A stretch of 64,000 nt of DNA, taken from contig CAYXAU010000011.1 of NCBI GenBank assembly GCA_964463045.1, positions 11,631 to 75,630 on the forward strand, written 5' to 3'. Both the position numbers and the translations under genes were made by a program. Shown piece by piece: positions 5,187 through 46,865 of the stretch; the stretch's first letter is position 1; each line of letters opens with the position of its first letter. The notes beneath the pieces were generated by a model. It was not told the DNA's origin, made no database searches, and saw only the letters and a program-made list of their open reading frames with translations. This DNA is from an uncultured Candidatus Sumerlaeota bacterium (GTDB lineage: Bacteria; Sumerlaeota; Sumerlaeia; MVZB01; JAJFLK01).

Positions 5187-5322
5187 ACCTGATTCCCTGC
5201 CGCCGAGACCCGGCCGGGGCAACGGCTCCTTCAGCTTCGAGCCGGACCCGCCCGCCCCGGAGGCCCCACCGGCTCGCCCGCCCGCCGCCTTCCCTCGTGA
5301 AACCGCCGAACGGAGTCCGAAC

Positions 5323-18225: not shown

Positions 18226-18522
18226 GACGCTTGCCTCCGTGGCTGGGCGTTTGGACCGGCCCGCCTCGCCCCCTGGGCTTCCGGCCCGCTGTGCTTCCCG
18301 CTCGGGGGGCATGCCGTCCCCACCCGGCCCCGGCGGGCGCCTGGTCCGAAGCGTCCGCCATCATAGCGACTTTCCGCCCGGGGGCCAGCCTCAACGTGCC
18401 CGCCGGCGATCCGCCGCCGGTTGAGATTCGCGCCTGAAGCTGGACAATGGGGCGCTTTCGTCGACGACGCCGGTAACGCCCTATCCCGACGCCGCCGGAC
18501 AGGACGCCAAGCCCCCGGACTC

Positions 18523-25000: not shown

Positions 25001-26032
25001 ATGAAGGCCATTCAGGAAGCGATCGCCCGCCTGGGCGAGGGCGATCCCGTCGGCGAGGAACTCGCCGGACGGGTAGCCGGGGAAATCCTCGCCGGAGAGG
25101 CCACGCCGGCCCAGATCGGAGCTTTCTTGACGGCTCTGCGCATCCGAGGGGAAAGGGCCGAGCACCTGCTGGGCTTCGCACGGCGCATGCGCGCCGCGGC
25201 CCGGCCGGTCCGTGTCGCCGACCCCCTCGACCTCGTTGATACCTGCGGGACGGGGGGGGACGCCGCCGGAACCTTCAACGTCTCGACCGCCGCCGCCCTC
25301 ATCGCCGCCGGGGCGGGCGTCCGCGTCGCCAAGCACGGCAATCGCGCCGTCACCGGCCGCTGCGGCAGCGCTGACGTCTTACAGGCCCTTGGGGTCGATA
25401 TCGAATGCCCCCCGGAGGCGGCCGAGCGATGCCTGCGTGAGGCGGGGCTCGCCTTCTTCTTCGCCCCGACGTTTCACGCGGCCATGCGCCACGCGGCCGC
25501 CCCGCGGCGGGAGATCGGGGTCCGGACGATCTTTAACATGCTCGGGCCGCTGGCCAACCCCGCGGGGGCGCGCCGCCAGCTTATCGGCGTTTACGACCAG
25601 CGGCTCGTCCCGCTCCTGGCCGAAACGCTCCTTGAGCTGGGCTCCATCCATGCTCTGGTCGTTCATGGGGAAGATGGATTGGACGAGATTACGGTTACCG
25701 GGCCGACCCACGTCGCCGAGCTCCGCGACGGAACGCTCCGATCCTACACGATCGAACCCGAGGCCTTCGGCCTCCGCCGGGCCTCGCCGGAAGCCCTGCG
25801 TGGGGGAGACGCCGCCTTAAACGCGGCGATCCTCCGGAGCATCCTCACGGGAGAAGCCGGTCCCCCGCGCGACGCGGCCGCGCTGAACGCCGCCGCCGCG
25901 CTCGTCGTCGGCGGGCGCGCCGCCGATCTCGCCGAAGGCCTCGCGCGCGCCGGCGCGGCCATTGAGAGCGGGGCGGCCGCGCGCGCGCTGGAGCGGCTCG
26001 TCGAAGCCTCGCGCGCCGCCCGTGTCGGATGA
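25001..26032 (+). CDS. trpD: Anthranilate phosphoribosyltransferase TrpD
   Basis: DTCGTGGD, the KHGNRAVTGRCGSADVL block and the overall glycosyltransferase-3 fold pattern are present, at 343 aa. Confidence 0.9.
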   Translation: MKAIQEAIARLGEGDPVGEELAGRVAGEILAGEATPAQIGAFLTALRIRGERAEHLLGFARRMRAAARPVRVADPLDLVDTCGTGGDAAGTFNVSTAAALIAAGAGVRVAKHGNRAVTGRCGSADVLQALGVDIECPPEAAERCLREAGLAFFFAPTFHAAMRHAAAPRREIGVRTIFNMLGPLANPAGARRQLIGVYDQRLVPLLAETLLELGSIHALVVHGEDGLDEITVTGPTHVAELRDGTLRSYTIEPEAFGLRRASPEALRGGDAALNAAILRSILTGEAGPPRDAAALNAAAALVVGGRAADLAEGLARAGAAIESGAAARALERLVEASRAARVG

Positions 26033-26850
26033 ACATCCTCGACCGCATCACGGCATACAAGATCGGGTTTGTCGAGCGCCGCCGGGCTGAGCGACCGGTC
26101 GAGGCCATCAAAGCTCAGGCTGAGGCCGCCGGGCCCGGCCGGGGCTTTGCGCGGCCTCTTCGGGGACCCAGAGACGCCGGCGGCCATCGTATCCCGGGCA
26201 CCGCGCCCCGCGTCGTGGCCGAGATCAAGCGGGCCTCCCCCAGCAAGGGACTCATCCGGGCAGAGTTCGACCCGGCCGCGCTGGCGCAGTCTTATGAGGC
26301 CGGCGGGGCGACGGCGCTCTCGGTCCTCACTGACGAAGCCTTCTTTGGCGGCTCGATCGACGACCTCGCGCGGGCGCGCGCGGCAAGCGCCCTGCCCATC
26401 CTCCGCAAGGAGTTTATGATCGACGCCTACCAGGTTTATGAGGCCCGCGCCGCCGGGGCCGACGCGATCCTGCTCATCGCCGGGCTGATCGACTGGCCCG
26501 CCCAGCGGGAACTGCGCCGGCTGGCGGCCGCCCTGGGCCTGGACGTCCTGATCGAGATTCACGCCAGGGAGGAGCTCGAACCGGCCCTTGAACTTGAGCC
26601 CGACGCCCTCGGCATCAACAACCGCGATCTGCGCAGCGATGATTTTCGCACTGATCTCTCGCGCACGGCGACCCTCGTGCCCGACGTCCCCGAGGCCATG
26701 ACGCTCATCAGCGAAAGCGGCGTCCACGCCCCGGAGGACGTGGCCCGCCTGGCCACGCTCGGCGTGGACGCCCTCCTGATCGGCGAACGCCTCATGCGCG
26801 AGCCGGACCCCGGCGCGGCGATCGCCGCGCTTCTGGCTCACGTCGGCTGA
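26029..26850 (+). CDS. trpC: Indole-3-glycerol phosphate synthase TrpC
   Basis: IAEIKRASPSKG, LSVLTDEAFFGGS and LRKEFMIDAYQ motifs are present. It overlaps the trpD stop by 4 nt. Confidence 0.9.
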   Translation: MNILDRITAYKIGFVERRRAERPVEAIKAQAEAAGPGRGFARPLRGPRDAGGHRIPGTAPRVVAEIKRASPSKGLIRAEFDPAALAQSYEAGGATALSVLTDEAFFGGSIDDLARARAASALPILRKEFMIDAYQVYEARAAGADAILLIAGLIDWPAQRELRRLAAALGLDVLIEIHAREELEPALELEPDALGINNRDLRSDDFRTDLSRTATLVPDVPEAMTLISESGVHAPEDVARLATLGVDALLIGERLMREPDPGAAIAALLAHVG

Positions 26851-26877
26851 CCGCCTGCCGCCCCCCGTCTCGGACGC

Positions 26878-27657
26878 CTACCAGAGAAAATCCTTCTCGT
26901 AACCGCAGTCGATCAGGAGATCGCCGAACATGAGCTTGAAGCCGAGGGCGTTTTCGGCGCTGAAGTGGTTCTTCCAATCGCCGACGACACCCTTGCGTTG
27001 GGGGGAGCGCGGATCCTCCTGCCCGACTTCGCGTCCGGACATCTTCTCAAAGCTCGTCTCCTCGACGATGTGACGGACCAGCGCCGCCTCGGCCTTGAAG
27101 CCCAAAGCGGCCAAGAGACGATGAAGTTCACCGACCGCGTCCGCCTTGAGCGCCTCGTAAGAAACCACCGGCACGCCCGGGACCGTCTTCCATACCTGGA
27201 CGTCGACGTAGCGCTTGCAGGAGGCGCACCAGCGCAGGAGATTCTCGGCCTTGAACAGCTCCTCCTTGCTCATCGTGCGAAAAAAAACCGGGGCGCGCTT
27301 GGGATTGAGCGACGAAAGGTGAAAATAATTGGAGACGACCACGTCTCGAAGGTCCCGGTAAACGTAAACGGCCCGGATTTCGCGCTCGGCGAGAATCTCA
27401 AATAGACCCGGCGAGGACATGATGTGCCCATGGAACACCTGGCCCGGCTGCAGATTCAGCAGCTCCTCCGGACGGGTCCCCTCCAGACGCTCCATCGGAA
27501 ACCGCTCGTAGCCCGGCAGCATCGAGAGCATGGCCACCGTCCAGGTGGTTCCCGATTTGGGAACGCTGTTAACGAGCAGCCGCCGCGGGGGGTTATCCCG
27601 CAGAAACGCCTGCCGGGCCCGCTCCAGTTCGGCCGTCGGGGCCGGCGTCGAATTCAT
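26878..27657 (-). CDS. PAPS-dependent sulfotransferase (eukaryotic-type Sulfotransfer_1 fold)
   Basis: The 5'-PSB loop PKSGTTW and the 3'-PB-like RDLRDVVVSNYFH are present. It is the last gene of the minus-strand glycan operon. ATG 27738 is an alternative start overlapping the upstream GT. Confidence 0.75.
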   Translation of the reverse strand: MNSTPAPTAELERARQAFLRDNPPRRLLVNSVPKSGTTWTVAMLSMLPGYERFPMERLEGTRPEELLNLQPGQVFHGHIMSSPGLFEILAEREIRAVYVYRDLRDVVVSNYFHLSSLNPKRAPVFFRTMSKEELFKAENLLRWCASCKRYVDVQVWKTVPGVPVVSYEALKADAVGELHRLLAALGFKAEAALVRHIVEETSFEKMSGREVGQEDPRSPQRKGVVGDWKNHFSAENALGFKLMFGDLLIDCGYEKDFLW

Positions 27658-27718
27658 CTCCCCCACTGCTCTCGCGGTCGATGACGGCCGCTCGCGGCCG
27701 TCGCCGGGGCCGGAACCT

Positions 27719-29644
27719 TCATCGCTGGGCGAGGGCATCGGTCACCTCCGTGGACGCCAGGGCCGGATGCGTCCGGCGCACCAGGTCCAGAAAGTCGCCG
27801 GCGGCCTCGGCGTCGGAAAGCGGCTCGACCGCCTTGAGGCCGTTCCGGACCAGTCGAGCGCGGAGCCCCGGCTCGCGCAGCAGACGCTCGACGGCCGCCG
27901 CGGCCCGGCCGACGTCCCCCACGGGAACGAGAAGCGCATTGACCCCTTGTTCGGCGTAATCCCGGACACCCCCGCTCTCGGACAGGACGCAGGCGGTCCC
28001 GCAGGCCATCGCCTCGACGCCGGAGCGGCCGAACCCGTGATGCCGCGACATTTCGAGAAACACGTCGGCGCGCCAGTAAAGGGGCGGCAGCTCCTCCGGG
28101 TTTACGCGCCCGGCGTTGACGAACGGAAAGTTCACCGTGAGCCGATCCAGCTCCGGCGAGCCGAACAGCACGATCTCGACAAGCGGGAGCCGCGCCGCGA
28201 CTTCCTCCAGCGTCTTCAGCACCAGATCGAATCCTCGATGCGGGTGGCCGAGACGACACATCGCCAGAACGGTCGGCGGGCGCCCCGGCTCCTTCGGCCG
28301 GGGATAAAAAAGGTCCAGGTTCATGCCAGGCCGGATCAGATGACAATGATTACCCTGGGAGGCCATGGCCTCGCACAGAAAGCGCGTCTTGGCGAATTTG
28401 ACCTCGATGCGGGCGTAGGATTCCTGGACGCCCTGACGCCGGACGGCATCGCCTTCGTCGTAAAAATTGGCCTCAAGGTCCTGGATAAAATAGTAAGCGC
28501 GCCCGCCGGCCGTCCGCGCGGCCAGCCGGGCCACCGGCTCGACCGTCTCCCACGAGGTGGCCAGTAAGACGTCGAATGGGCCGGGGAAGCGGTCCGGAAT
28601 CTCATCCCACGCCGGGACGTGCGCCGGCTCGGCGTAAAGCACGTGGGGATGGCGGTCGCACCGACTGAGCGAAACGATCGTCGCGTGATGCCCCCGCTCG
28701 ATCAACTGGTTCAGCAAATTGACGACGGAGATGACCCCGCCATAGGGATTCAGCGTCGGCAGCACACAAAAGATCTCCAGCGGACGGCCGGCTGCGGGTG
28801 AACCCCTGGCATTCGATGACAATTGCGGGGCCGCCGAGCCGCCGAGCCATCGCTCTTCCAGCCGAGCGATCGAGGCCGGTCGCTCAGCCGCGGACGGCGA
28901 GTCTCCCCAACGGCGCCGCAGGATCGCCGCCGAACGCTGAAGGGCCGCCTCCGGAGCGGCCTCGTGGGACGCGACGGCCGGACGGTAATAAACGTAAAGG
29001 TCGTCCAGGCAGCCGACGCGGAATCCGCGCCAGCGCATCCTTTCGGAAAGGTCCCGGACGGCCGACGGAAGATCGGCGAAAAGCTCATCGATCGGCCCCA
29101 CCTCCGCCAGAGCCCTCCGGCTCGCCACGAAGGCGAAGGCCTCGCCTTCGGCGAGATCGGGCGTCTGCGCAGGACCGAATGAACGCGCGAGTTCGCTCAT
29201 TCGGAGCAGGTCCGAACCCGGCCGCATCGGCACTCGGGCGCGCACCCCCCAAGGCGACAGGGGAGACGCCAGCCCCAGCCGCCCATCGCGTCCGAACGCC
29301 GCCTGAAGACAATCCAGCCAGCCGGGGGTGACGACGACGCACGGCGAAAGACAGAAAATCAGATCGGCCTCAAGCCCCCGCATCACTTCGGCGAAGGCGT
29401 GGACCGAGCCCAGGGGGCGGCGGCGGCGGATCAGACGCAAGCGGTCGGGGTTCAGGTCGGCGTAGGCCTTGAGGCGCCCGGCGATGACGTCATCATTGGC
29501 GTCGTCGACAACGGTCAGCCGCCACGTCTTCCCGCCGCCCCACTTGAGGAGCGCGTCCAGGCAGGGGCGCGCGCGATGCCAAAGCCCCTGGACGCAAACG
29601 ACAGCCTCGCAGGAGGCCGGCCCTGAATCGCCTGAGACCGCCAT
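27719..29644 (-). CDS. Two-domain glycosyltransferase (N-terminal GT2-like, C-terminal WsaF/GT4-like retaining GT)
   Basis: The N-terminal LTVVDDANDD... is GT2-like. The C-terminal half has FCVLPTLNPYGGVISVVN (WsaF-type N-subdomain) and the GT4 motif HGFGRSGVEAMACGTACV. Its start is 1 nt after the stop of the upstream 2117-aa gene. Confidence 0.75.
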   Translation of the reverse strand: MAVSGDSGPASCEAVVCVQGLWHRARPCLDALLKWGGGKTWRLTVVDDANDDVIAGRLKAYADLNPDRLRLIRRRRPLGSVHAFAEVMRGLEADLIFCLSPCVVVTPGWLDCLQAAFGRDGRLGLASPLSPWGVRARVPMRPGSDLLRMSELARSFGPAQTPDLAEGEAFAFVASRRALAEVGPIDELFADLPSAVRDLSERMRWRGFRVGCLDDLYVYYRPAVASHEAAPEAALQRSAAILRRRWGDSPSAAERPASIARLEERWLGGSAAPQLSSNARGSPAAGRPLEIFCVLPTLNPYGGVISVVNLLNQLIERGHHATIVSLSRCDRHPHVLYAEPAHVPAWDEIPDRFPGPFDVLLATSWETVEPVARLAARTAGGRAYYFIQDLEANFYDEGDAVRRQGVQESYARIEVKFAKTRFLCEAMASQGNHCHLIRPGMNLDLFYPRPKEPGRPPTVLAMCRLGHPHRGFDLVLKTLEEVAARLPLVEIVLFGSPELDRLTVNFPFVNAGRVNPEELPPLYWRADVFLEMSRHHGFGRSGVEAMACGTACVLSESGGVRDYAEQGVNALLVPVGDVGRAAAAVERLLREPGLRARLVRNGLKAVEPLSDAEAAGDFLDLVRRTHPALASTEVTDALAQR

Positions 29645-29645
29645 G

Positions 29646-32600
29646 TCATTTGAGGGCCATCGTTGGATTCAGGACAAAGCGGTGGATTTTTTCGAGCGCG
29701 TCCTCCCACCGCAGGGACTTAACCGTCTGGAGGCCGCCCTCGGCGATCCGCTGACGCAGCGCCGCGTCTTCGACCAGCTCGCCGAGACGCGCCGCCACGC
29801 AACTGACCGTCGGTTCGGTCAGAAGGGCGTTCTCCCGATCGCGCAGGAGCCAGAGATTGTGTTCGTTGTGGTTGGTGACCGTCGCGCACCCGCTCGCCAT
29901 GTACTCCAGCGGCTGATAGGAGGGGTGGGTCGTGAACATGAACACCAGCCCGACGTCGCACTGCCGATAAAGCGCGGCCACTTCCCCCAGATCGGCGAGC
30001 ACGCCCCGGTTCTCGATCACGCCGCCGAGGCCATGCTCGGCCACGTCGAACGCCCCTCCCGCGGAAATGATTTCAACCTTATCCCCATAAACGTTCTTGA
30101 CGCGTCGCAAGGCTTCGATCCCCAGGCGAAAGCCGTTACGCACGTTCCGCGGCCGGCCATAGAAGACGATCCGGACCGGCCCGCGCGACGCGCGAGGTTG
30201 AGGCGACGGGTAAAAAACCTCGCGATCCACGCCCGGAAGGAAGGATTCGACCCATGGGTTATATCGACGGTAGACCTCGGCCACGCCCGGCGTGTTGGCC
30301 AGGCCCACAAATCCAAATCGGTAGGTTTGCTCAATGAGGCCGAAGACCGAACCGGCGGGATAGAAAGCCGCCTCATAATCCTGATTGAAATAATACTTGG
30401 CCCGGCAGCGATGATATCGAACTAGATGGTAAGCCGAGTTCCAGAGCGTGCACAAGGCCGCGTCCGAAGGAGGAAGCTCCGCCGGATCGGCCCCGTCCGG
30501 CAGCGCCAGGAGATCAAACCGCAGCCGCGGGAACGCCTCCCGAATCTCCGGTCCGAGCGCCTCAAGATGGCGCGGCTGTCGGCCGTAGAAGACGATCGTG
30601 TTGTGCGTCCCGGACCTCTCCGAAAAATGCTGAGCCACGCGGAAGATCGTGTATATCCCGCCTCGATACACGTGATCGAAATAAGGGACGAACCAGAGCG
30701 CGCGCCGCAGCGTCAACCGCGGCTCGCGCGCGAACCGCGCCATCAGCGCTTGATTGGCCTCCAAAACGCGCGGACTGACGTCATAGAGAAGGACTTCGGC
30801 GTCCGGCCCGACGGCCTCGCCCCGCGGCGACGCCTCAACGAGCCGCGCCTCGATCCCCGATCGCGCGGCCTCGGCCGCCTCCCGCTCGCGCCGATATCGC
30901 TCGCGGAACTCCCGGTGCATCGGCGACCCGCCCAGATCGAGCCGGAGCGCCGACGAATTGTAGGAGAAGTGGGCGTTGAAGAAGGGGTCCCCCTCGTCCA
31001 GATAAGGTTGATAATGGATCAGAGAGAGACGGATATCGGCGTCGCGGACGCGCATCGGCTTCCGTGAGAGTTTCTCATGGTGAAACAGCCGCGCCTCGGG
31101 ATTGACCACGTTGCGGCATCCCCGCTCCATCAGCCGCAGCCCCAGCTCCACGTCGCTCCCCGTCACTTCAAACTGTTCGTTGAACCCGCCGATCTCCTCA
31201 AACAGCGTCCGCCGGATCGCCAGGCAAGCCCCGGTCACGGCCGTGACGTTGCGACGGTGTCGCGTCCACTCCGACGGAACGAGGGCTTCGTCTTCCCCGG
31301 CGAAGAGATGCCCGGCGAGCCCCCGTAAGCCGACGACCACGCCGGCATGCTGCAGGGCGCCGTCCGGGTAATAGAGCTTTCCGCCGACCGCCCCCACCCC
31401 AGGGCGCAGAGCGTCGCCGACCAGTTCCGCCAGCCAGTGAGGGGTGATGACCTCGGTGTCGTTGTTCAGGAAGACGAGCACGTCGCCGCGGGCCTCGCGG
31501 GCCGCGAAATTGTTGAGCCGCGAATAGTTGAAGGCCGGGCGATATTCCAGAACCCGCGCGACCGGATGGCCCTGGAGCGTCTCCAGGAAGCTGAGCGTCT
31601 CCGGTTCGATGCTGTTGTTGTTGACGAGCAAAAGTTCAAAGCGCGGGCGCTCCGTCAAGCGAAGAAGGCTCTCCACGCAGGCCCGGAGCGCGCCGACCTG
31701 ATCCCTGAACGGGATGATCACGCTGGCCATCGCCTCCGAGGTGTCATAAACGGGCCTGACGATCCCCGGGCCGCGCTCGACGGTCGCAAGCCGGGCTCCC
31801 TGTCGGCGCGCCGCCTCCCGGACGAACTCGGCTTCTTCCTCCCCGGCCCTTTCCGCTCGCTCTTGTGGACAATGCAGGCCGACGCGGTCGACTTTGACGA
31901 TCCGACGGCCCTTCTCCCACAAGCGCAAGAGGACGTCCCGCAAAAACGCACGCGGCCAGCGCGTCTCAAAGCCGCCGACCTCGACGACGGCGGTCCGATC
32001 GAGCCAGACCGCGTTGCCGACGTAATCATGTTCGAGCAGATAATCGGGAGAAAAACCGGGCTTGAAGCGTGGGGCGCAGCGACGCCCGTCGGGGCGCAGC
32101 GCGTCGTCATCAAAAACGATCACGGCGGGCCTCCGATCCGGCTCGACGGTTTCGAGCTGCTCGGCCAGCAAGCCCACGGCGGCCGGGTGGATCTCGTCCC
32201 CCGCCCAGAGCGCAATGACGTAGCCTTCCTCGGTCCGGCCGAGCCGCCGGTTCAGAGCGTCGATCATCCCGTCGTCGTCCCCCCCGTTCCAATCTTCGGC
32301 CTCGACGCGGCGCGCTCCGTCCATCTCCAGCGGCGTCCCCTGAGGCTTGATGAGAGTGATGGGAAAGTCGCGATGAATCCGGGCCAGCGAGCCCAGCGTC
32401 GCGCGCGCGCGCCCGACGGCTTCAGCCTCGGGGCACAAGATGAACGCGCGAACCGACGGCAGGGCCGGCGGCGGCGACACCGGACGCTCGCGCTCGTTCA
32501 GAAACCGCTGATACTCGTCCTCACGCTCGGCCTCCACCTGAGCCCGGTCAACCCGAGCTCGGCCCGTTTCAGCCGCCGTCTTCGCGTCGGCTCTCGAAAC

Positions 32601-35600
32601 CGGGGTCGAGGCGCCGGCGGCGGCGATCTCCCTCCGACGAGCCAGCCGAGCCCCCAATCGTGCGGCCATCGACCGGAGAGACGGTTCCTCGGCGGCTGCC
32701 TTCATCACGGCCGCCAACCGATCGGCGCCGTGCTTGGCCTTAAGCGCCGCCCACCCTTGCTCGGAAAGCGTCCGGCGCTGGTCGTGGCCGAAGCTTCGGG
32801 ATTTGGCGTGAAAGACGTAAACGTGATCGGCCACGGCGCAGGCGAACCCCGCCGCGCCGGCCCGGAGGCAGAAGTCGTTCTCCTCCCCGTAGCCGTTCGG
32901 GAACGTCGCCTCGTCCAGGTAGCCGATCCGATCGAGGAGCCCTCGCTTGATCAGAAAACAGAACCCGTTGATCACGGGCAGCCGAGGGAACCGCCGTTCG
33001 GAGAGGCGCTCCACCCCTTCGTCCATCGCCTCGATGCTCATCCCCTCGGGCAGCGCGTTGACCATCCACTCCCCGGCCGAGTCGCGACGGTCCGGGACGG
33101 ACTGCCAACTGGCCGCATTGGAGAGCGGCCCGACGATGCCGATCGCCGGATCGGATTCGGCGCACTCGATCAGCCGGTCCGTCCAGCCTGGCGGCACGAC
33201 CGTATCGCTGTTCAGCAGGATCACGTACGCAGCCGACGAGGCGCGCAACCCCTGGTTGGCCGCCCGCGTGTAACCTTTGGCCTGAGCGTTCTCGATCAGG
33301 AGGACCTCCGAGCGCCCTTGAGCAAACTGACGCAGGAAGGCCGACGTCGGGCCCTCGGAGCCGTCGTTGACGACAATCAACCGCCATGGGGACGGCGTCG
33401 CCCGGACGACCGAATCCAGACAGCGCCGCGTGTCCTCCAGGGCGTTGTGGACGCAGACGACGATATCGACCTCCCCGACAGCGGAGAAGGCCCCCGATAC
33501 ACTCCGCGGCGCCGCGGCGCCTCCGGGAGATGTCTCGATCGCCTCGACTTCAAGCGCCCGGTCCGGCTGCGGCTCGACCGGCTCGTCGCGTTGGGCAACC
33601 CGAAGCTTCGGATGCGCCGCAGGCGAGGGCGCTCGCGGAGTCGGCGTCGGCGTTGGCGCTCTGCCGGCCGGGGCGAGACCTTTTAAGCTCTCCAGCTCCC
33701 TGCCCGCTCGGCGCTCCAGGGCGAGCAGTCTTCGATCATGGTCTTCTTGCGCCCCGCAAAGCCGATCCAGCCGCGCCGCTGCCCGCCGGGCGAACTCCCG
33801 CCGCCAGCGCTCAAAGCGCCGGACAAAAATTTGCGCCTCGTCTGGGGCGAGAATGGGGGGCCGTGGGATGAGCTTCAGGCGCTCGGCCACGCGACCGGCC
33901 AGATTGCCGAGCTTCCACCGCCAGGAGTTGCTCATGAAAGCCATATCACGCGCCAGACGATCCACCCAGTCGACGAGTGTGACGGTCTCCTCGGCGAGCT
34001 GGGCCGTTTCCTTGCGCAGGGCGTCGATCCGGCCCGATCGCTCCAGCGCGGCTCGGCGGAGCATTTCGACGCGGGATACCGCGCCAGGGACTGATGGCGG
34101 AGCGTAGCGCTGCGGGAATCCCCTGAGGCGATTGGCTTCGCCCTGCCAGGCCTCAAACTCCGAGAGGACTCCTCGCGCGTCCTCAGGCGCCAGCACCGGG
34201 GGACGGCGGATCAACCGCAGACGCTCGGCGGCGCGCCCCACGCCGTGGCCCAGTCGCCACCGCCGGGATTTGCCCATGATATCGATGTCTCGATGGAGAT
34301 TATGAATCCAGCCGATCAGCTCCCGCTGGTCCTGGCCGCGCTCGCGCAGATCCGTCTCCAGTTCTCGAAGTAGGGCGTCCTTGGCGGCGACGAGCAGTTG
34401 CAGGAAGGCGGCCTCGTCAAGCTCCCGGAGCCCGCTTTCGCGCTGGATCAGGGCGGCCACGCGGCCCTCCAACTCGGTCTTTTCGCGGCGGGCCTCGTCG
34501 AGCTGGCCGGAAAGACGGCCGGCCTCTCCTCTCAAATTCTCAGCCTCGGCCTGCAGACCCTCGGCGCGGGCGTGGGACTCCTGATATTCGAGGGATTTCT
34601 GCTCGAGGGCCTCCCCAAGTCGGCCGATTTCCCTCTTAAGCTCCTCGGCTTCAGCTTGCAGACGCTCAGCGTGGGCTTGCGCGTCGATCAGCTTGAGGAC
34701 TTTCTCCCGGAGCGAGGCGGCCTGACGCCTGAGGAGTTCCTCTTCCCGGGCCAGCGCTTTCTTTAAATCGTCCTCGCGGGCCCGCAGGGTGTTAAGCTCG
34801 CCCTCCAGAGCCTCCAGGCGCGCCTTCGCCCGCCGGGCTTCCTCTTGCCGCTCCTTGAGGAGCCGCCCCATGGCCTCCTCTTGCAAACGCTTGAGCCGTC
34901 CGAGGGCTTCCTCCCCCTGGGCTCGCGCGGTTCGCAGATCGATCTCGTGATCGCGGGCGAGGCGTTTGCGCTCTTGTTCGGCCTGTTCCGCCTGGCGCGC
35001 GAGCTCCTCCTCCAACCCTCGCAGCGCCGCTTGCCCATCCCGGAGCCGACCCTCCAGACCGAGCTTCTCCTCCCTGAGCGCGGTCGAAGCCCCCTCGGCG
35101 GCCTGAAGCGCGTCGGACCGAGCGGCGACGTCGGCCCGCAGCTCCTCCAGCTCGGCTTTGAGGCTCTCCTCGGCGGCCTGGTGCGCGGCGACGCGTTCCT
35201 GAAGCTTGCCGAGCCAGGCCCGCTTCTCCGAACGGTCGACCTCGGTCTCCATCCGGACGGCCTCGGCCTCGTCGAAGACCTTGCGCAGGGCCGGCGTCGG
35301 CGTCAGGCGCCGCAGGAGGCCCGCCAGCGAACGGTTGCTCGCCTTCAGCTCCCTCGGCAACAACACCCCGAGGCCATTGATGGCCGGGATTCGGATGAAA
35401 TCGATCTTCTCTCCGCACTCCTCCAGGAAGTCCTCGATCGCCGTCAGTACGCCGTTCTGAAGGTCGTTCTCGTAGATCGAGTGATTCAGGTGCGGATTCA
35501 GCCCCCCGCGCTCGGCCAGGCCATCGAGCCCCGGCTTGACCCCGCGCTTCTGATAAGGCTTCCGGAACGCCGGCGGAATGGTCTCCGGATCGTAATACAG

Positions 35601-35999
35601 ATCGCGCCGGCCGTACGGCCAGCCGATGTCGTGGAGGAAGACCAGGGGGAAAGGCCGTCCCTCGCGCCGGGCCGCCCGCTCGATCAATTTGAGCTCGTTG
35701 TACGTCGTATACCAGTTATGGTCGCCGTCGATCAGGACAGCGTCCATCCGAGCGATCCGCGGCAGCGCGTTGAGGCTCAGCCCTTGATGAAAGTCGAAGC
35801 GTTCGCCGTGTTCCCGCTTCATGGCCTCGACGTCGAACTTGGGGGCGGGATCGATCGAATGAAGCGTCGCCCCCGCGCGCTGGCAAAACGCAAGCAGATT
35901 GCGCGTGTTCGCCCCCTGGTCGGCCCCGATCTCGACGACGTCGCGCGGCTCGAGCAGCGTGAGGACCGGCTCCAGCAGGGAATTCCATAAACGTTGCAT
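29646..35999 (-). CDS. Giant (2117 aa) multidomain glycan-assembly protein: N-terminal SAM methyltransferase, ~315-aa coiled coil, duplicated WRW-LG motif, three GT2 domains and a C-terminal WsaF/GT4-like domain
   Basis: The MT domain has VVEIGADQGANTRNL...VLIDGDHNWY (Methyltransf_24/CmcI-type). The coiled coil is a heptad-rich E/R/A/L segment at ~aa 245-560. GT2 DxD-type blocks are IVVCVHNALEDT...LIVVNDGSEG and ASVIIPFRDQ...LLLVNNNSIE...FLNNDTEV. The C-terminal domain has RGGIYTIF and FMFTTHPSYQPLEYMASGCATV. An RBS GAGGG lies 9 nt before the ATG. Confidence 0.8.
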   Translation of the reverse strand: MQRLWNSLLEPVLTLLEPRDVVEIGADQGANTRNLLAFCQRAGATLHSIDPAPKFDVEAMKREHGERFDFHQGLSLNALPRIARMDAVLIDGDHNWYTTYNELKLIERAARREGRPFPLVFLHDIGWPYGRRDLYYDPETIPPAFRKPYQKRGVKPGLDGLAERGGLNPHLNHSIYENDLQNGVLTAIEDFLEECGEKIDFIRIPAINGLGVLLPRELKASNRSLAGLLRRLTPTPALRKVFDEAEAVRMETEVDRSEKRAWLGKLQERVAAHQAAEESLKAELEELRADVAARSDALQAAEGASTALREEKLGLEGRLRDGQAALRGLEEELARQAEQAEQERKRLARDHEIDLRTARAQGEEALGRLKRLQEEAMGRLLKERQEEARRAKARLEALEGELNTLRAREDDLKKALAREEELLRRQAASLREKVLKLIDAQAHAERLQAEAEELKREIGRLGEALEQKSLEYQESHARAEGLQAEAENLRGEAGRLSGQLDEARREKTELEGRVAALIQRESGLRELDEAAFLQLLVAAKDALLRELETDLRERGQDQRELIGWIHNLHRDIDIMGKSRRWRLGHGVGRAAERLRLIRRPPVLAPEDARGVLSEFEAWQGEANRLRGFPQRYAPPSVPGAVSRVEMLRRAALERSGRIDALRKETAQLAEETVTLVDWVDRLARDMAFMSNSWRWKLGNLAGRVAERLKLIPRPPILAPDEAQIFVRRFERWRREFARRAAARLDRLCGAQEDHDRRLLALERRAGRELESLKGLAPAGRAPTPTPTPRAPSPAAHPKLRVAQRDEPVEPQPDRALEVEAIETSPGGAAAPRSVSGAFSAVGEVDIVVCVHNALEDTRRCLDSVVRATPSPWRLIVVNDGSEGPTSAFLRQFAQGRSEVLLIENAQAKGYTRAANQGLRASSAAYVILLNSDTVVPPGWTDRLIECAESDPAIGIVGPLSNAASWQSVPDRRDSAGEWMVNALPEGMSIEAMDEGVERLSERRFPRLPVINGFCFLIKRGLLDRIGYLDEATFPNGYGEENDFCLRAGAAGFACAVADHVYVFHAKSRSFGHDQRRTLSEQGWAALKAKHGADRLAAVMKAAAEEPSLRSMAARLGARLARRREIAAAGASTPVSRADAKTAAETGRARVDRAQVEAEREDEYQRFLNERERPVSPPPALPSVRAFILCPEAEAVGRARATLGSLARIHRDFPITLIKPQGTPLEMDGARRVEAEDWNGGDDDGMIDALNRRLGRTEEGYVIALWAGDEIHPAAVGLLAEQLETVEPDRRPAVIVFDDDALRPDGRRCAPRFKPGFSPDYLLEHDYVGNAVWLDRTAVVEVGGFETRWPRAFLRDVLLRLWEKGRRIVKVDRVGLHCPQERAERAGEEEAEFVREAARRQGARLATVERGPGIVRPVYDTSEAMASVIIPFRDQVGALRACVESLLRLTERPRFELLLVNNNSIEPETLSFLETLQGHPVARVLEYRPAFNYSRLNNFAAREARGDVLVFLNNDTEVITPHWLAELVGDALRPGVGAVGGKLYYPDGALQHAGVVVGLRGLAGHLFAGEDEALVPSEWTRHRRNVTAVTGACLAIRRTLFEEIGGFNEQFEVTGSDVELGLRLMERGCRNVVNPEARLFHHEKLSRKPMRVRDADIRLSLIHYQPYLDEGDPFFNAHFSYNSSALRLDLGGSPMHREFRERYRREREAAEAARSGIEARLVEASPRGEAVGPDAEVLLYDVSPRVLEANQALMARFAREPRLTLRRALWFVPYFDHVYRGGIYTIFRVAQHFSERSGTHNTIVFYGRQPRHLEALGPEIREAFPRLRFDLLALPDGADPAELPPSDAALCTLWNSAYHLVRYHRCRAKYYFNQDYEAAFYPAGSVFGLIEQTYRFGFVGLANTPGVAEVYRRYNPWVESFLPGVDREVFYPSPQPRASRGPVRIVFYGRPRNVRNGFRLGIEALRRVKNVYGDKVEIISAGGAFDVAEHGLGGVIENRGVLADLGEVAALYRQCDVGLVFMFTTHPSYQPLEYMASGCATVTNHNEHNLWLLRDRENALLTEPTVSCVAARLGELVEDAALRQRIAEGGLQTVKSLRWEDALEKIHRFVLNPTMALK

Positions 36000-36013
36000 C
36001 GGCTTGCCCTCGT

Positions 36014-36775
36014 TTACTTGCGGATCAATTCGGCCTCGGCGCGGGCTTTATCTTTCCTCAGCATCTGGGTAAAGGCGACGTAACGGGCGACGACCTCCTC
36101 GGCGGAGCCTTCGGCCTGGGTCACGCCGTGCTCGATCCAGACGGCCTGATCGCAGAGGTCCTTGATGCTGGCGGCGTTGTGCGAGACGAGCACGATCGTC
36201 TTGTCCGAAAGGAGCTTCTCGCGCAGGACGGCCGCCGATTTCTCGCGGAAGGCCGCGTCCCCCACCCCCAGCACCTCGTCGATCAGCAGAATGTCCGGGT
36301 CCATCTGAAAGGCCACTGAGAACCCCAGCCGGGCCGTCATGCCTGAGGAGTAAGTATAGATCGGCCGATCGATGAAGTCCCCCAATTCGCTGAAGTTGAC
36401 GATGTCGTCCATCCGCGCGCCGATCTCCGCCTTGTCCAGCCCCAACAGCATCCCGCTCAGGTAGGCGTTCTCCCGTCCGGTCAGGTAGGGCAGAAACCCC
36501 ACCTGGAGCGAAAGCACCGAGGCCTGGTAGCCGTGGTTGATCATCGAGCCCCGGTCCGGCTCGATGATCCCGGCCATCAGTTGGAGCAGCGTCGTCTTGC
36601 CCGCCCCGTTGCGCCCGATGACGCCCAGGGATTGCCCCCGACGCAACGTCAGCGAGACGTTCCGGAGCGCCCAGATCGGCTCGCGCTTGAGGTAACCGCG
36701 GCGCACCCAGTAGCAGACGCCGACTTTCGTCAGCTCGATCAACGGCTCGGCGGCCAGGGCCACGCGGTCGTTCAT
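36014..36775 (-). CDS. wzt: Polysaccharide ABC exporter ATP-binding protein Wzt/TagH-type (short form, no C-terminal carbohydrate-binding module)
   Basis: Walker A GRNGAGKTT, the signature YSSGMTARL and Walker B LLIDEVL are present, at ~253 aa. Its start ATG overlaps the wzm stop by 1 nt (TGATG). Confidence 0.85.
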   Translation of the reverse strand: MNDRVALAAEPLIELTKVGVCYWVRRGYLKREPIWALRNVSLTLRRGQSLGVIGRNGAGKTTLLQLMAGIIEPDRGSMINHGYQASVLSLQVGFLPYLTGRENAYLSGMLLGLDKAEIGARMDDIVNFSELGDFIDRPIYTYSSGMTARLGFSVAFQMDPDILLIDEVLGVGDAAFREKSAAVLREKLLSDKTIVLVSHNAASIKDLCDQAVWIEHGVTQAEGSAEEVVARYVAFTQMLRKDKARAEAELIRK

Positions 36776-37653
36776 CAGGAGGCCACCCTCGGGTAAAGTC
36801 GGTCGTACCGCCGCAGGAGGTAATTGCCGGCGACGATCCCCGCGACCGAGAAGGAGCCGATCCAGACGAGCCCGCTCCCGTCCGGCCATCGGTCATACAT
36901 CAGCACCTCCCGATAGGCCTCGATCAGGTTGGCCATCGGGTTCAAATAAAAGTAAGGCCGGAGCCCATCCGGCAGCGAGGCCCCCGCGTAAAAGACCCCC
37001 GAGAGATAGAACGCCACTTGCAGGGCGTGATCGATCGGGATAAGCAAATCCGGGACGAAGGGATAGACGGCCGCCAGCGGATAGGCCAGGGCCGCAATCA
37101 GCAGGAGATGGATCAGCAGCAGGACCGGCAAGGCCAGGTAAGGCGCCCCGGGCCGGAACCCATAAACCCACAGGAAGGCCATCAGCATCAGAAAGGCGAC
37201 CAGAAACTTGCACGTATCTTTGAGAATCGTCGTCGACGGCAGCACGAACTTGGGCAGATAGACCTGGCGCATGAGCGTCTTATTGGCCGGGACCTGCACG
37301 GCGGCCCCGCGGACGGTCGTCTGAAACCATTTCCACGTGATCACGCCGATCAGCAGAAAGGGGACAAAATCCTCCGTCCCCCGGTGGAGGATCAGTTTGA
37401 AAACCACGTAAAAGACGAGCATGTTGATTACCGGTTCGATGATCCACCACAGAAACCCGATGTAAGTCCGTTGGGATTCGGCCTTGAGCTCGGCGTAAGT
37501 CTTGTAAAGGATCAGGTCCACGTAGCGGCGGGTGGGCCGCCGACGTTGGCCACGGGCTTCGGTCCCGGCCCGGGAGGCCCCCATGGCCATCGCCCCCTCC
37601 GCCTCGCCCGATCGGGCCGCCACGGAAACGCTCGATGTCGCAGGGGCTTTCAA
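36775..37653 (-). CDS. wzm: Polysaccharide ABC exporter permease Wzm/TagG-type (ABC-2 family); true start probably at internal ATG ~37584-37590
   Basis: Six predicted TM helices with an ABC-2 permease pattern (YIGFLWWIIEPV...). It is translationally coupled to wzt. Confidence 0.8.
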   Translation of the reverse strand: MKAPATSSVSVAARSGEAEGAMAMGASRAGTEARGQRRRPTRRYVDLILYKTYAELKAESQRTYIGFLWWIIEPVINMLVFYVVFKLILHRGTEDFVPFLLIGVITWKWFQTTVRGAAVQVPANKTLMRQVYLPKFVLPSTTILKDTCKFLVAFLMLMAFLWVYGFRPGAPYLALPVLLLIHLLLIAALAYPLAAVYPFVPDLLIPIDHALQVAFYLSGVFYAGASLPDGLRPYFYLNPMANLIEAYREVLMYDRWPDGSGLVWIGSFSVAGIVAGNYLLRRYDRLYPRVAS

Positions 37654-38048
37654 GTCAATGGCCTCGGGTGTCGGTTCGCATCACGGTCGAATGGCGCATG
37701 ACCGCCCCCGGGGGGCCAAGGCCCCCTGCCGGGAGCAGGGGGGGTCGGGCTCTCAGACGCCCCTTGGGCTTGGCTTACACGCTCGCCGACAGGAACACCC
37801 CAACGGGGGGCATCGCTGGATGAAAAGAGCCATCTGAGCGGGAAGCCGGCTCCCTCCCCGGCGAATTATAACAGGGTCCTTGGGCATCGCAACTTTAATG
37901 ACATCAATCGGCTGCGGTCATCCGCCCGCCGAGCTTGTCGAGTCTCCCGCGACGGTTATAGGATCGGGAGCCCAGGCGGGACCGGGACTCTCGGCCCCTT
38001 TCGTCGCGCCGTCCCGGCCCGTTCCGAACCCGTTTTCAGGGCAGGGCG

Positions 38049-38585
38049 ATGAAGGTCAAAACCATGACTCAGAGGCGCGGCCAGCGGCGGGCTCCGGCCT
38101 CAGCCGCCTGGGTTGGCCGGCCCTGGGGGGCGGGGCTTCTGGTTCTGGCCGGGATCACGGGCGCCGTGGCCTGGTGGCAGCGTCCGCGTGAGAGCGCGCC
38201 CTTGCGGATCGTCATCGTCGACGAGACCGGACGGCACGACCGGGCGGTGGCGCGCGCCCTGGAGGCGGAGGCCGCCGACTGGGCGCGGCCGCTCGAGGTG
38301 GATCAGGCGAAACTCACCCGCCTCGTCACGGTCGCGGATGTTTTGGAACGTCTGACCGAGCTCGTCCGCTCCGGCGATCTCGACGGGTTTTTGCATCTCC
38401 CCGCCGACTTTGATCAACGCGGCGTCGCCCTTTATTACCGGGCGGGCCGCGGCGGGGACGCGCTCACGCCATCGCTCCGTGCGGCCCTGGTTTCGACGGC
38501 GGGGGTCAGCCGCTCAGGCGCCCAGTCAGACCTGGAAAGCCCCCCGGCCTCCAAGATCCGGCTTGAAATCCGACGCGTGTCCTGA
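38049..38585 (+). CDS. Hypothetical membrane-anchored protein
   Basis: An N-terminal TM segment (GAGLLVLAGITGAVAWW) is present, and the ORF looks coding by composition. No family is recognised. Confidence 0.35.
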   Translation: MKVKTMTQRRGQRRAPASAAWVGRPWGAGLLVLAGITGAVAWWQRPRESAPLRIVIVDETGRHDRAVARALEAEAADWARPLEVDQAKLTRLVTVADVLERLTELVRSGDLDGFLHLPADFDQRGVALYYRAGRGGDALTPSLRAALVSTAGVSRSGAQSDLESPPASKIRLEIRRVS

Positions 38586-44128: not shown

Positions 44129-45151
44129 TCAGGACCCCGATCGGCGGGCCGCTGAGCTTCGCGCGGGGACCCCCGGGCGCGAGACGCGCGCCGCGGCCTT
44201 GCGTTCGATCACGCTTTGGATTCGCAAATCGAAATCGCGGGCGACGTTCACCCCGCGGGCCCGCAACCGTTGCGTCAACGCCGAGACCTCGATCAGTTGG
44301 GAAATATTCCGGCCCGGCTCGACCGGCAGGACGATCTGCGGCACGCGCGCGTCGCAAAGCGTGATGAACTGCTCGGCCAACCCCAGCCGTTCGTATTCCT
44401 TCTCCGGATCCCACGTCTCAAGCTGGATCACGAGAGCGATTTCACTCTCCTCCCGGACGGATCGGGCCCCGAACAACCGCTCCACGTCGATGATCCCGAT
44501 GCCGCGGATTTCCATATGGTGTCGCAAGTGCGGCGAAGGCTCAGCGTAGAGCCGTCCCCGCCCCGTGCGCCGGACGATCACCACGTCGTCGGCGATCAAG
44601 AGATGCCCCCGTTCCACCAGATCCAGGCCGCATTCGCTCTTGCCGACGCCGCTTTTCCCCTGGATCAAGACCCCCAGACCGAAAACCTCCACCATGACGC
44701 CGTGAACGACCCATCGCGGGGCGAGCCGCCGTTCCAGATACTGCCCCAACTCGGCCTGGAACGACGTCGTCAGGTGATTCGTCCGCAGGAGCGCAATGCG
44801 TTGCTTCTTGGCAATCCGGATCAGCTCCAGCGGCACCGGCAGCGAGCGCGTGATTACGAAGCACGGCACCGACAACTCGAACGTCCGCCTTAGCCGTCGA
44901 TTTCGCTCCCGAATGGACAAGCTTTGCAGGTACGAAATCTCCGTCAGCCCGATAAGCTGGATGCGATCGGTGGAGAAAACTTCGTAAAAGCCGGCGAGCG
45001 CCAGACCGGGCCGGTTGAGCTCAAACGTCGTGATCAGCCGCTCAAGCCCGTCCTTCCCCGCCAGCAGCTCCAGCTCCCACTCGGCCCCCCGCGCCTCCAA
45101 TAACTCCCCGACCGTGATCGGAGCGATCGTCCTGGCGGTCTCAGGGGTCAT
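44129..45151 (-). CDS. hprK: HPr kinase/phosphorylase
   Basis: The P-loop GKSGVGKSE and the HprK C-terminal signature LRHHMEIRGIGIIDVERLFG are present. Confidence 0.85.
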   Translation of the reverse strand: MTPETARTIAPITVGELLEARGAEWELELLAGKDGLERLITTFELNRPGLALAGFYEVFSTDRIQLIGLTEISYLQSLSIRERNRRLRRTFELSVPCFVITRSLPVPLELIRIAKKQRIALLRTNHLTTSFQAELGQYLERRLAPRWVVHGVMVEVFGLGVLIQGKSGVGKSECGLDLVERGHLLIADDVVIVRRTGRGRLYAEPSPHLRHHMEIRGIGIIDVERLFGARSVREESEIALVIQLETWDPEKEYERLGLAEQFITLCDARVPQIVLPVEPGRNISQLIEVSALTQRLRARGVNVARDFDLRIQSVIERKAAARVSRPGVPARSSAARRSGS

Positions 45152-45362
45152 GGGAGGACCGGGCCGGGCGAGCGAGCCTCCCCTCGGCGGCTCACGACAA
45201 GTTACGCCGTTCCGGCTTCAAAGATCAAACCGATCGGCGGCGGCCCGGCACGCGCCGGACCGGACGGCCGGCCCCCCCTTGCGCCCGGGACTTGAACTCC
45301 CCCCCTGCCCTGAAAAAGACTGGTCCGGCGCGGCGCGATCGACGCCGTCGGAGGTTCACCCC

Positions 45363-46865
45363 TTGACGCGACTTCTCGTGTTGGGGACGGGCCCGCTGAT
45401 CGAGCCCGGCATGAGGCTCTTCAGCGCTCACTGCCTGAGAACGTCTCACTTTGTCGAGCCCTTGCGAGAGGCGGGTCATGAAGTCCGCCTCTTCACGCTG
45501 CCCATCCCCGCCGAGGACCCCGCCACTCAGATTCAGGCCGGCGTCGAAGAACGCCGATTCGGAGCGTTCGCCTACGTCAACTTCCGCAATAACAACGACG
45601 CCTATAACCTGGAGCGTCTGGCCGAGGCGGCCCGCGCCTTCCAGCCTCAGGCCTTGCTCGCCGTCAATTCTTATCCCTGCGCGCTTCTGTCGCGTCTGCC
45701 ATGGCAGGCGCCGCTCTGGGCCGATCTCAACGGCTCGGTCGTCGTCGAGGGCCAGGTCAAAGCCGCCGTCGAGGCCGACGACGCCAACCTCGGGCTCTAT
45801 TGGGCCATGGAAGAGGCGGCGCTGCGCCGGGCCGACAAGTTCTCCGTCGTCTCTCGCCGGCAGCTTTATTTCCTCTACGGCGAGCTGGCCGCCGTCGGGC
45901 GGCTCAATCGCTTCACGGCCGGCTACGCCTTCGCCCATCACGTTCCCAACGCTGTCAATCCTTTCTTCGCCCGGCAGCCGGGCCCGACGGCCGGGTCGGA
46001 GCGCCGGCTCCGGGGGCGGCTCGTCCCGGAGACGGCCTTCATCACGCTCTGGAGCGGCGGCTACAACACGTGGACCGACCTGGAGACGCTCCTCACCGGC
46101 TTGGAACGCGCCATGGCCGCCTGCCCCGAGATGCATTACGTCTCGACCGGCGGCGGGATCCGCGGCCACCACGAAGCCACCTATGACCGCTTCCAGACGC
46201 GCGTCCGCCGGTCTCCCTTCGCCGATCGGTTCCATCTGCTGGGCTGGGTGGAGGCCGCCGATCTGCCGGGGATTTACGCCGAGGCTGACCTCGGGCTCTG
46301 CATCGACGCGCCCAACACGGAAACCACCTTCGGCGCGCGCAATCGCTCGATCAACATGGCGGCCGCCGGTCTGCCCGTCCTCGCCTGTGAAGGGGCTGAG
46401 ATCAGCGAGGAGATGCTGGCCGCGGGCGTAGCGCTCGGCTGTCGGCTGGGCGAACCGGAGGATTTCGCGCGGGCGCTCATCGCCGCCTGCCGGGACCGCG
46501 AGAACCTGCCGGCGCTGGGGGCGAAGGGGCGCGCCTACGTGCTCGAGCAGTTCAACGCGCATCGAACGGTCGAGGCCCTCCTGGCGTGGGTCCGATCGCC
46601 CGCCTTCGCTCCCGATCATGCCCGCCGCATCGAATCCGCCCCGGCCGGAACCGATCCCTTCGCGTTTCCCATGAACCCGATCGAGGAACGGTGGGCCCGG
46701 CAGGCGACCGCAACCCCGGGCGGCGGCCATCCCACGCGGAACAGTTGGGCGGGCGTTTTCAAGCGAGGGCTCCGAACGGCCCTCGGCCCCGCAGCTTACG
46801 AACGCCTGCGCCGCCTCAAGCGCCGGCGCAGCGACGGCTCCGATCCCGGCGCGGCTCACTCATAA
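45363..46865 (+). CDS. Glycosyltransferase family 4-like (GT-B retaining)
   Basis: C-terminal GT4 features are present (HLLGWVEAADLPGIYAEADLGLC..., AAAGLPVLACEGAEISE). Start is tentatively TTG 45363 (MTRLLVLGTGPL); ATG 45408 is an alternative. Confidence 0.65.
   Translation: MTRLLVLGTGPLIEPGMRLFSAHCLRTSHFVEPLREAGHEVRLFTLPIPAEDPATQIQAGVEERRFGAFAYVNFRNNNDAYNLERLAEAARAFQPQALLAVNSYPCALLSRLPWQAPLWADLNGSVVVEGQVKAAVEADDANLGLYWAMEEAALRRADKFSVVSRRQLYFLYGELAAVGRLNRFTAGYAFAHHVPNAVNPFFARQPGPTAGSERRLRGRLVPETAFITLWSGGYNTWTDLETLLTGLERAMAACPEMHYVSTGGGIRGHHEATYDRFQTRVRRSPFADRFHLLGWVEAADLPGIYAEADLGLCIDAPNTETTFGARNRSINMAAAGLPVLACEGAEISEEMLAAGVALGCRLGEPEDFARALIAACRDRENLPALGAKGRAYVLEQFNAHRTVEALLAWVRSPAFAPDHARRIESAPAGTDPFAFPMNPIEERWARQATATPGGGHPTRNSWAGVFKRGLRTALGPAAYERLRRLKRRRSDGSDPGAAHS

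Follow-up and report, generated by a model that had tools for sequence, protein, structure and literature searches.

A methyltransferase, a coiled coil and glycosyltransferases on one polypeptide: a probable terminator-type Wzm/Wzt glycan assembly operon in an uncultured Sumerlaeota bacterium

In some glycan assembly systems that depend on the ATP-binding cassette (ABC) transporter Wzm/Wzt, the enzymes that extend and terminate the chain reside on one polypeptide. The WbbB protein of Klebsiella pneumoniae O12 carries out both polymerisation and termination and includes a coiled-coil molecular ruler (PMC11231755). In ORF6 of K. pneumoniae O7 (ORF6-O7), a methyltransferase(-kinase) at the N-terminus is followed by a coiled coil in the centre and, towards the C-terminus, by two rhamnosyltransferase modules of glycosyltransferase (GT) family GT2, and this succession of terminator, coil and polymerase is a characteristic marker of the terminator-ruler strategy (PMC11231755). 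WsaE, from the S-layer glycan locus of Geobacillus stearothermophilus NRS 2004/3a, combines a methyltransferase with two rhamnosyltransferase domains; its gene comes after wzm-wzt in an arrangement of overlapping codons, and its partner is a separate GT4 enzyme, WsaF (PMC2943079, PMC3898925). Here, these systems are compared with an operon built around a 2117-aa open reading frame (ORF) in a 64,000-nt stretch of DNA from an uncultured Candidatus Sumerlaeota bacterium (contig CAYXAU010000011.1, positions 11,631 to 75,630). This whole stretch is referred to below as the window.

The operon occupies positions 26878-37653 of the window, which has a GC content of 67%. It probably encodes ABC-transporter-dependent glycan assembly of the coiled-coil terminator kind, and the product would be an L-rhamnose-rich, methyl-capped and sulfated chain whose length is set by the coil. 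Its five genes are as follows.

36775-37653, minus strand: wzm, the ABC-2 type permease of a glycan exporter, a 292-aa ORF that opens at TTG.
36014-36775, minus strand: wzt, the ATP-binding subunit, 253 aa, starting at an internal ATG.
29646-35999, minus strand: the 2117-aa ORF, which starts 14 nt past the wzt stop.
27719-29644, minus strand: a GT2+GT4 fusion of 641 aa, which starts 1 nt past the stop of the large ORF.
26878-27738, minus strand: a 286-aa sulfotransferase of the type that uses 3'-phosphoadenosine-5'-phosphosulfate (PAPS); Pfam Sulfotransfer_1, E 7e-26.

Every assignment is backed by both Pfam and NCBIfam, and the five-gene minus-strand operon described in the original prediction stands. 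The placement of adjacent permease and ATPase genes inside a glycosyltransferase cluster identifies the locus as a Wzm/Wzt-type system. Wzm has several transmembrane-like segments and matches Pfam ABC2_membrane (E 2.2e-11) as well as the NCBIfam models for KpsM and galactan Wzm/RfbD; its real start may lie further downstream than the TTG. Wzt matches Pfam ABC_tran (E 4e-21) and, in NCBIfam, galactan Wzt/RfbE (6.7e-56) and TagH. One base belongs both to the stop codon of wzm and to the start codon of wzt (TGATG), as had been predicted. At the other end of the operon, the sulfotransferase ORF has 20 nt in common with the GT2+GT4 gene, read in a different frame (27719-27738, minus strand), or the two lie 61 nt apart if Met28 is the true start.

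The large protein can be divided into the following parts, given from its N-terminus.

35280-35999, minus strand: S-adenosylmethionine (SAM)-dependent O-methyltransferase domain of the Methyltransf_24 type, residues 1-240, a candidate chain terminator.
34245-35273, minus strand: coiled-coil-like helical spacer, residues ~243-585, a candidate molecular ruler.
34125-34319, minus strand: first copy of a post-coil motif, residues 561-625, W..L..D...S.RWRLG...RPP.
33780-33977, minus strand: second copy of this motif, residues 675-740, 48% identical to the first.
33495-33671, minus strand: flexible linker rich in proline and threonine, residues 777-835, with 14 prolines in 777-831, an AlphaFold2 pLDDT below 40 and no secondary structure.
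32670-33494, minus strand: GT2 module a (GT2a), residues 836-1110, Pfam Glycos_transf_2 at 846-1023.
31800-32447, minus strand: divergent GT2/GT-A-like domain, residues ~1185-1400, matched by hhalign to the protein's own GT2 profiles.
30900-31754, minus strand: GT2 module b (GT2b), residues 1416-1700, Pfam Glyco_tranf_2_3 at 1426-1638, E 4e-28.
29646-30899, minus strand: WsaF-like GT4 (GT-B) module, residues 1701-2117 and the stop codon, WsaF_C at 1943-2072, E 7.8e-27.

A methyltransferase at residues 1-240, a helical heptad region at ~243-585 and GT modules from 836 onwards make up the layout of a terminator joined to a ruler and distal to the polymerising modules, as in the coiled-coil terminator systems WbdD, WbbB, ORF6-O7 and ORF7-O4. 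The N-terminal domain matches Pfam Methyltransf_24 at residues 22-124 (E 2.9e-13), in agreement with the original prediction. Its Rossmann-type SAM fold and family match place it among the cation-dependent class I O-methyltransferases, and it has an E-x-G motif at residues 23-25 and an invariant D91-G-D93-H-N95 motif. The closest folds are O-methyltransferases of the COMT/CCoAOMT type, and rhamnose O-methyltransferases are among the fold neighbours. No WbdD chain was recovered in phmmer and profile searches of the PDB or among the top 50-60 fold matches, and a profile of the methyltransferase family gave only chance matches to PDB sequences (E>0.5). Neither a kinase nor any other domain lies between the methyltransferase and the coil. 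By analogy with described terminators, the enzyme would cap the chain terminally rather than methylate it internally.

The spacer that follows lies in a proline-free stretch (residues 237-599) with constant heptad registers at 265-343, 381-420, 436-516 and 541-580, and its heptad scores exceed the 95th percentile of shuffled sequences in several blocks. A single-sequence AlphaFold2 model of the monomer (pTM 0.31) predicts two long helices, 256-355 and 362-521, with pLDDT 70-84, followed by shorter ones as far as about residue 585. Weak matches to SMC, Rad50 and CENP-F models of Pfam and NCBIfam fall in the same region. The proline-free, heptad-periodic helix amounts to about 270-340 residues. 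Of the continuous coil of about 315 residues that was originally predicted, the long coil is upheld and the strict continuity is not, since the model shows a discontinuity near residues 356-361. Coiled coils rise by ~0.148 nm per residue. If the coil were a parallel, unbroken rod, residues 256-521 would span ~39 nm and residues 256-585 ~49 nm. A role for this element in setting glycan length would follow by analogy with known rulers.

Some features of the region beyond the coil recur in relatives of the protein. Among its 120 best homologs, 41 carry one to three copies of the motif W..L..D...S.RW[RK]LG...RPP at the C-terminal end of the coil. The duplicated motif is basic and aromatic in character, has the fuller form L..W[IV]..L...S.RW[RK][LIV]GN..G...R.P, and could be a membrane-proximal anchor or docking site. 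No transmembrane-like segment was found in the large protein, and a membrane-anchored form was rejected for this reason. The AlphaFold2 model predicts no beta-rich domain resembling a carbohydrate-binding module (CBM) in residues 225-840.

Two of the three GT2 domains that had been predicted, GT2a and GT2b, are recognised by Pfam, with a whole-protein Glycos_transf_2 E-value of 3.5e-41. GT2a is 46-59% identical in most homologs. The third appears to be a divergent, GT-A-like domain, and for it the prediction is only partly borne out. Residues ~1185-1400 have no Pfam match even at E<=10 when searched alone, and hhalign aligns them to the GT2b profile with 97.8% probability (E 7.6e-13) and to the GT2a profile with 95.4%. 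This domain lacks the first Asp motif, with IKPQG in place of the VNDGS/VNNNS of the GT2 modules, and GDE stands where the DXD motif would be; it is possibly non-catalytic. It always precedes GT2b in six homologs (P0002-P0007), in which GT2b is 53-61% identical.

The WsaF-like domain was correctly predicted and is the best guide to the sugar that is polymerised. It matches the crystal structure of WsaF (PDB 2x0d) with an E-value of 2.8e-12 and retains residues D171, F176, Y247, R249, R254, H326, Y329 and E333 of that enzyme, mutation of which cripples WsaF activity. The proline-rich signature PHPSYPPLE proposed for rhamnose reads THPSYQPLE here. With donor/acceptor residues and rhamnose signature in place, the module is of the WsaF GT4 type and is a probable dTDP-L-rhamnose-dependent rhamnosyltransferase. 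Genes of the rmlA, rmlB/D and rmlC types lie beside wzm/wzt at two loci of relatives that share the block of GT2-like domain, GT2b and WsaF-like module (L084 and L085, the latter in a Methanobacteriaceae metagenome-assembled genome). Because of the WsaF signature, these rml genes and the rhamnose O-methyltransferases among the fold neighbours, an L-rhamnose-rich polymer is the best guess for the glycan.

A protein of this size raises the question of whether separate genes have been joined by an assembly or frameshift error. The ORF is very long, and errors could hide in its low-complexity stretches, which are rich in proline or in Glu, Arg and Ala. However, it is a single uninterrupted frame. 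When it is divided into 21 consecutive blocks of 100 codons, every block has its lowest GC content at codon position 2, and the remaining frames contain 39 and 45 stops. A near-identical protein of 2117 aa (P0001), which differs from the window translation in at least one residue (S226 versus P), is recorded from JGI, and each domain junction is bridged by homologs from unrelated, independent assemblies. A frameshift artefact is excluded by the uniform codon-position GC, the stops in the other frames and the recurrence of the junctions in independent contigs. Misassembly was likewise rejected on the codon statistics, the junction-spanning homologs and the presence of the same operon in independent ENA and Logan contigs. 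An artefact of either kind, which the original prediction had itself allowed for, is thus extremely improbable, and the ORF is real. The companion concern, that these domains might always be separate in orthologs, is contradicted by more than 100 homologs that keep the order of methyltransferase, spacer and GT modules. These homologs show that the ORF is real and also that it is not unusual.

The 120 best homologs range from 1171 to 2605 aa (seven are at least 2000 aa). Their N-terminal methyltransferase and spacer are followed by GT2 and GT4 modules, the number of which differs between homologs. Their methyltransferases are 41-63% identical across the family, while the spacer between this domain and the first GT is hypervariable (53 to ~690 residues, median 287), a pattern like that of a ruler. 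The spacer of the window protein, at 595 residues, ranks 113th of the 118 that were ranked. P0002-P0007 share its order from the methyltransferase through to GT2b and the WsaF-like module. The nearest, P0002 (1791 aa), aligns to 72% of the query with 43% identity. Its operon, which was found in independent contigs from ENA and Logan, consists of wzm, wzt (241 aa), the gene for P0002, a fused GT2+GT4+sulfotransferase gene (896 aa) and a methyltransferase gene.

A profile of the methyltransferase domain, searched at E<=1e-30 against 1.84 billion cluster representatives, recovered at least 1,201 clusters at 50% identity that share it. In nearly all of the best 150 matches (259-2188 aa), the domain lies at or near the N-terminus. 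When one genome was scanned for each species, at least 592 bacterial and archaeal loci emerged, many of them adjoining wzm/wzt, in taxa that include Syntrophales, Desulfobacterales, Rubrobacteraceae, Planctomycetota, Myxococcota, Firmicutes, the candidate phyla radiation (CPR) group Peregrinibacteria and Methanobacteriaceae. Family members come in three formats: the methyltransferase alone (~230-260 aa), the methyltransferase with a coil (300-490 aa, resembling WbdD), and the methyltransferase with a coil and GT modules.

Some loci carry two or three methyltransferase-coil members, as in Thiobaca trueperi DSM 13587 (L034) and in L044 and L050 (Methanobacteriaceae). In Thiobaca, a 1419-aa protein with methyltransferase, coil and GT modules and a 483-aa protein with methyltransferase and coil flank one wzm-wzt pair, which suggests two terminators or rulers sharing a single exporter. 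In Anaerobacillus (L041), a 1119-aa methyltransferase-coil-GT protein follows wzm-wzt. Its link to WsaE is suggestive only, and the name WsaE does not occur among the cluster members of ten family proteins of ~1110-1140 aa.

Each described system shares part of this design. Like the window protein, ORF6-O7 is a single polypeptide, encoded beside wzm/wzt, with an N-terminal SAM-dependent methyltransferase terminator, a coil and C-terminal GT2 rhamnosyltransferases, and it needs an additional stand-alone GT. Unlike the window protein, in which the methyltransferase leads directly to the coil, ORF6 has a kinase and an immunoglobulin-like CBM before the coil and forms a methyl-phosphate cap. It also has two GT modules rather than four GT or GT-like modules. 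In ORF6, SAM is bound by glycines G91/G93 and CgnL is the closest fold, whereas the window enzyme has E-x-G at residues 23-25 and folds of the COMT/CCoAOMT type. Because of these differences in motif position and nearest folds, the two methyltransferases are probably not orthologous, and the window enzyme appears to be of a different type from both the WbdD and the ORF6-O7 methyltransferases.

WbbB (K. pneumoniae O12 and Raoultella terrigena) similarly places terminator, ruler and polymerising GTs on one chain, with the terminator at the N-terminus, distal to the polymerase. The window protein has no sequence similarity to WbbB, the terminator of which is a GT99 beta-Kdo transferase served by a Wzt with a cap-recognising CBM. 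WbdD and WbdA (Escherichia coli O9a/O8, K. pneumoniae O3/O5) also employ Wzm/Wzt-dependent assembly, a multi-module polymerase and a methyl (O8/O5) or methyl-phosphate cap added by an enzyme on a coiled-coil ruler. In that case, however, the terminator is a different protein from the polymerase, the catalytic domains of WbdD are N-terminal to a coil that ends in a C-terminal membrane anchor, and Wzt has a CBM.

In the Geobacillus locus the genes come in the same order, wzm-wzt-wsaE, and their stop and start codons overlap; WsaE has an N-terminal O-methyltransferase followed by rhamnosyltransferase domains. The window protein adds at its C-terminus a WsaF-type GT4 with the rhamnose signature, so that a WsaF-like module is fused to a protein that resembles WsaE as it is described in the literature. 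It also has a long coil, a feature that the papers cited here do not mention for WsaE. Two further differences are that rml genes are not adjacent in the window and that the Geobacillus Wzt, for which binding to the methylated cap has been proposed, contrasts with a window Wzt that has no CBM. Overall, the window protein looks like a fusion of WsaE and WsaF with a long coil added, arranged according to the logic of WbbB and ORF6-O7.

The original prediction treated the combination as a possible self-contained 'ruler-polymerase-terminator', an architecture not known to be described. It is true that no characterised protein was found with the exact set of Methyltransf_24 domain, coil, GT2, GT2-like domain, GT2 and WsaF-like GT4, and that WsaF is a separate protein in G. 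stearothermophilus. Nevertheless, a categorically new architecture is very unlikely. Contrary to what had been supposed, WbbB has no separate polymerases as partners; it polymerises and terminates within one protein, and the same principle is published for ORF6-O7 (PMC11231755), with WsaE (PMC2943079) as a further precedent. The claim of novelty is also refuted by the homologs with the same domain order, including P0002-P0007, and by the number of clusters and the lengths that family members reach. What survives is the reading of a single protein as terminator, ruler and polymerase, which fits every domain-level test and the position of the gene beside wzm/wzt; the premises about WbbB and about an undescribed architecture do not. 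The features that set this operon apart are the Wzt without a CBM, the conserved sulfotransferase, and the four GT or GT-like modules with a WsaF-like domain fused among them.

The window Wzt consists of a nucleotide-binding domain (NBD) only. It aligns end to end with NBD-only Wzt proteins, and no C-terminal CBM was found in its 253 aa, with the next gene beginning 14 nt on. All terminated O-polysaccharide examples have a Wzt with a CBM, and transporters without one are tied to non-terminated systems such as K. pneumoniae O1/O2 (PMC11231755). The short form is not peculiar to this operon, as it recurs in at least eight family loci (L001, L032, L034, L046, L047, L048, L052 and L085), three of which (L001, L032 and L034) encode a Wzt that is 59-61% identical to that of the window. 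The Wzt proteins at family loci take three formats: NBD only (229-253 aa), NBD with a CBM-sized tail of 170-200 aa, and a tandem double NBD (~505-575 aa). About a dozen loci have the last of these as a single Wzt, each NBD of which is 37-47% identical to the window Wzt (L010, L013, L014, L017, L019, L026, L030, L033, L038, L039, L041 and L084).

An NBD-only Wzt is what would be expected if length control were coupled to export. In K. pneumoniae O1/O2, which share this form of Wzt and have no coiled-coil terminator, length is set by export coupling. By extension, the window methyltransferase might decorate the chain, at internal or terminal positions, without stopping its growth, the coil might be only an oligomerisation scaffold or spacer, and length might depend on how much transporter there is relative to the synthesis complex, which is the case for the K. 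pneumoniae O2a system, likewise CBM-less. The existence of coil-less methyltransferases in the family also favours this explanation. However, the methyltransferase invariably forms the very N-terminus, and in most large members it is parted from the GTs by a coil of variable length, the arrangement that marks the terminator-ruler strategy (PMC11231755). Moreover, WbdD-like proteins of methyltransferase and coil only (300-490 aa) adjoin wzm/wzt. Export-coupled length control is judged unlikely.

The two remaining genes of the operon also have counterparts in related loci. The 641-aa protein matches Pfam Glycos_transf_2 at residues 22-122 and Glycos_transf_1 at 452-603, and is 44-46% identical to the product of the gene directly 3' of the large homolog in L001 and L084. 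It is a conserved downstream partner and may be a transferase that forms an adaptor or one that adds to the repeat unit. In L001, a domain with 58% identity to the sulfotransferase is fused onto the GT2+GT4 protein, and the two form one 896-aa protein. The sulfotransferase is a conserved accessory gene and represents a real deviation from known terminated systems.

The genes, domain order, ORF integrity, operon conservation and family size observed here lead us to favour the terminator-ruler mechanism (precedents in PMC11231755, PMC2943079 and PMC3898925). In the form that we infer, including the sugar, the terminal methylation, the ruler function and the final glycan acceptor, assembly might proceed as follows. 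The 641-aa GT2+GT4 protein would probably build the adaptor or add one linkage. GT2a, the GT2-like domain with GT2b, and the WsaF-like GT4 would polymerise the repeat unit, with dTDP-L-rhamnose as the most likely donor. As is described for WbdD, WbbB and ORF6-O7, the cation-dependent-type O-methyltransferase at the far end of the ~40-50 nm coil would reach, and cap with a methyl group, only those chains that are long enough. The sulfotransferase would decorate the chain, and Wzm/Wzt would export it. Since Wzt has no CBM, recognition of the cap is probably not a condition for export.

Several points weigh against this terminator-ruler mechanism. The window Wzt differs in its lack of a CBM from all characterised terminated systems. 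The capping role of this methyltransferase family is a prediction from sequence, and stand-alone members without a coil mean that the family is not intrinsically coupled to a ruler. The break at residues 356-361 of the model may allow an antiparallel hairpin instead of one extended rod. Equivalents of WsaF K302 and Y308 are not kept in the GT4 module. Finally, rmlABCD or other nucleotide-sugar genes, PAPS-synthesis genes, and genes for an initiating transferase or a ligase were not found within the 64-kb window.

A more specific version of the mechanism takes the absent CBM at face value. In such a terminator-ruler machine, length would be fixed by the 40-50-nm coil and the methyl cap, and export would dispense with the Wzt checkpoint, being either ungated by the cap or gated in another way, for example, by the sulfate that the co-conserved sulfotransferase would add. 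This version is offered tentatively and is considered rather doubtful.

The surroundings of the operon add little to these arguments. It is flanked by a convergent trpD-trpC pair (25001-26850, plus strand) on one side and by a divergent gene set from 38049 on the other. Scans of 26500-38300 gave chance-level results, with 1 promoter-like site against 1.0 expected from shuffles and 12 terminator-like sites against 8.8 expected. The lone sigma-70-like site (37865-37892, minus strand; TTGCGA-16-TATAAT with an upstream TG), ~210 nt 5' of wzm, was given no weight. Elsewhere, the window contains an ftsQ-ftsA-ftsZ cluster and sulfatase, DUF1501/DUF1800, PhoPQ-related and GFO/IDH/MocA genes. The best named relatives of FtsZ (5179-6720, plus strand) are from Candidatus Sumerlaeota/BRC1, with 58-66% identity. 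Two minus-strand ORFs score well in coding statistics and are unmatched in Pfam at E<=1e-4. One encodes 787 aa (15949-18312); the other encodes 1619 aa (46856-51715) and adjoins a gene for a 616-aa GT4-type glycosyltransferase (45015-46865, plus strand).

This locus opens no new kind of system, and the one feature that deserves a specialist's second look is its CBM-less transporter. The pairing of terminator-ruler proteins with a CBM-less or tandem double-NBD Wzt is a testable exception to the rule that terminated glycans are always exported via a cap-recognising CBM. If the CBM-less version of the mechanism is true, capping can be uncoupled from quality control at export, and the uncultured phylum Sumerlaeota makes a sulfated, methyl-capped, polyrhamnan-like surface polymer. 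The broader value lies in annotation. Members of a very large and almost wholly unnamed family, now catalogued as 'GT2 family glycosyltransferase' or 'hypothetical protein', can be recognised as methyltransferase-coil-GT assembly proteins of the kind characterised in Klebsiella by Whitfield and colleagues. The family spans Gram-negative, Gram-positive and CPR bacteria as well as methanogenic archaea, and the lengths of its coils could serve to predict glycan length from sequence alone.

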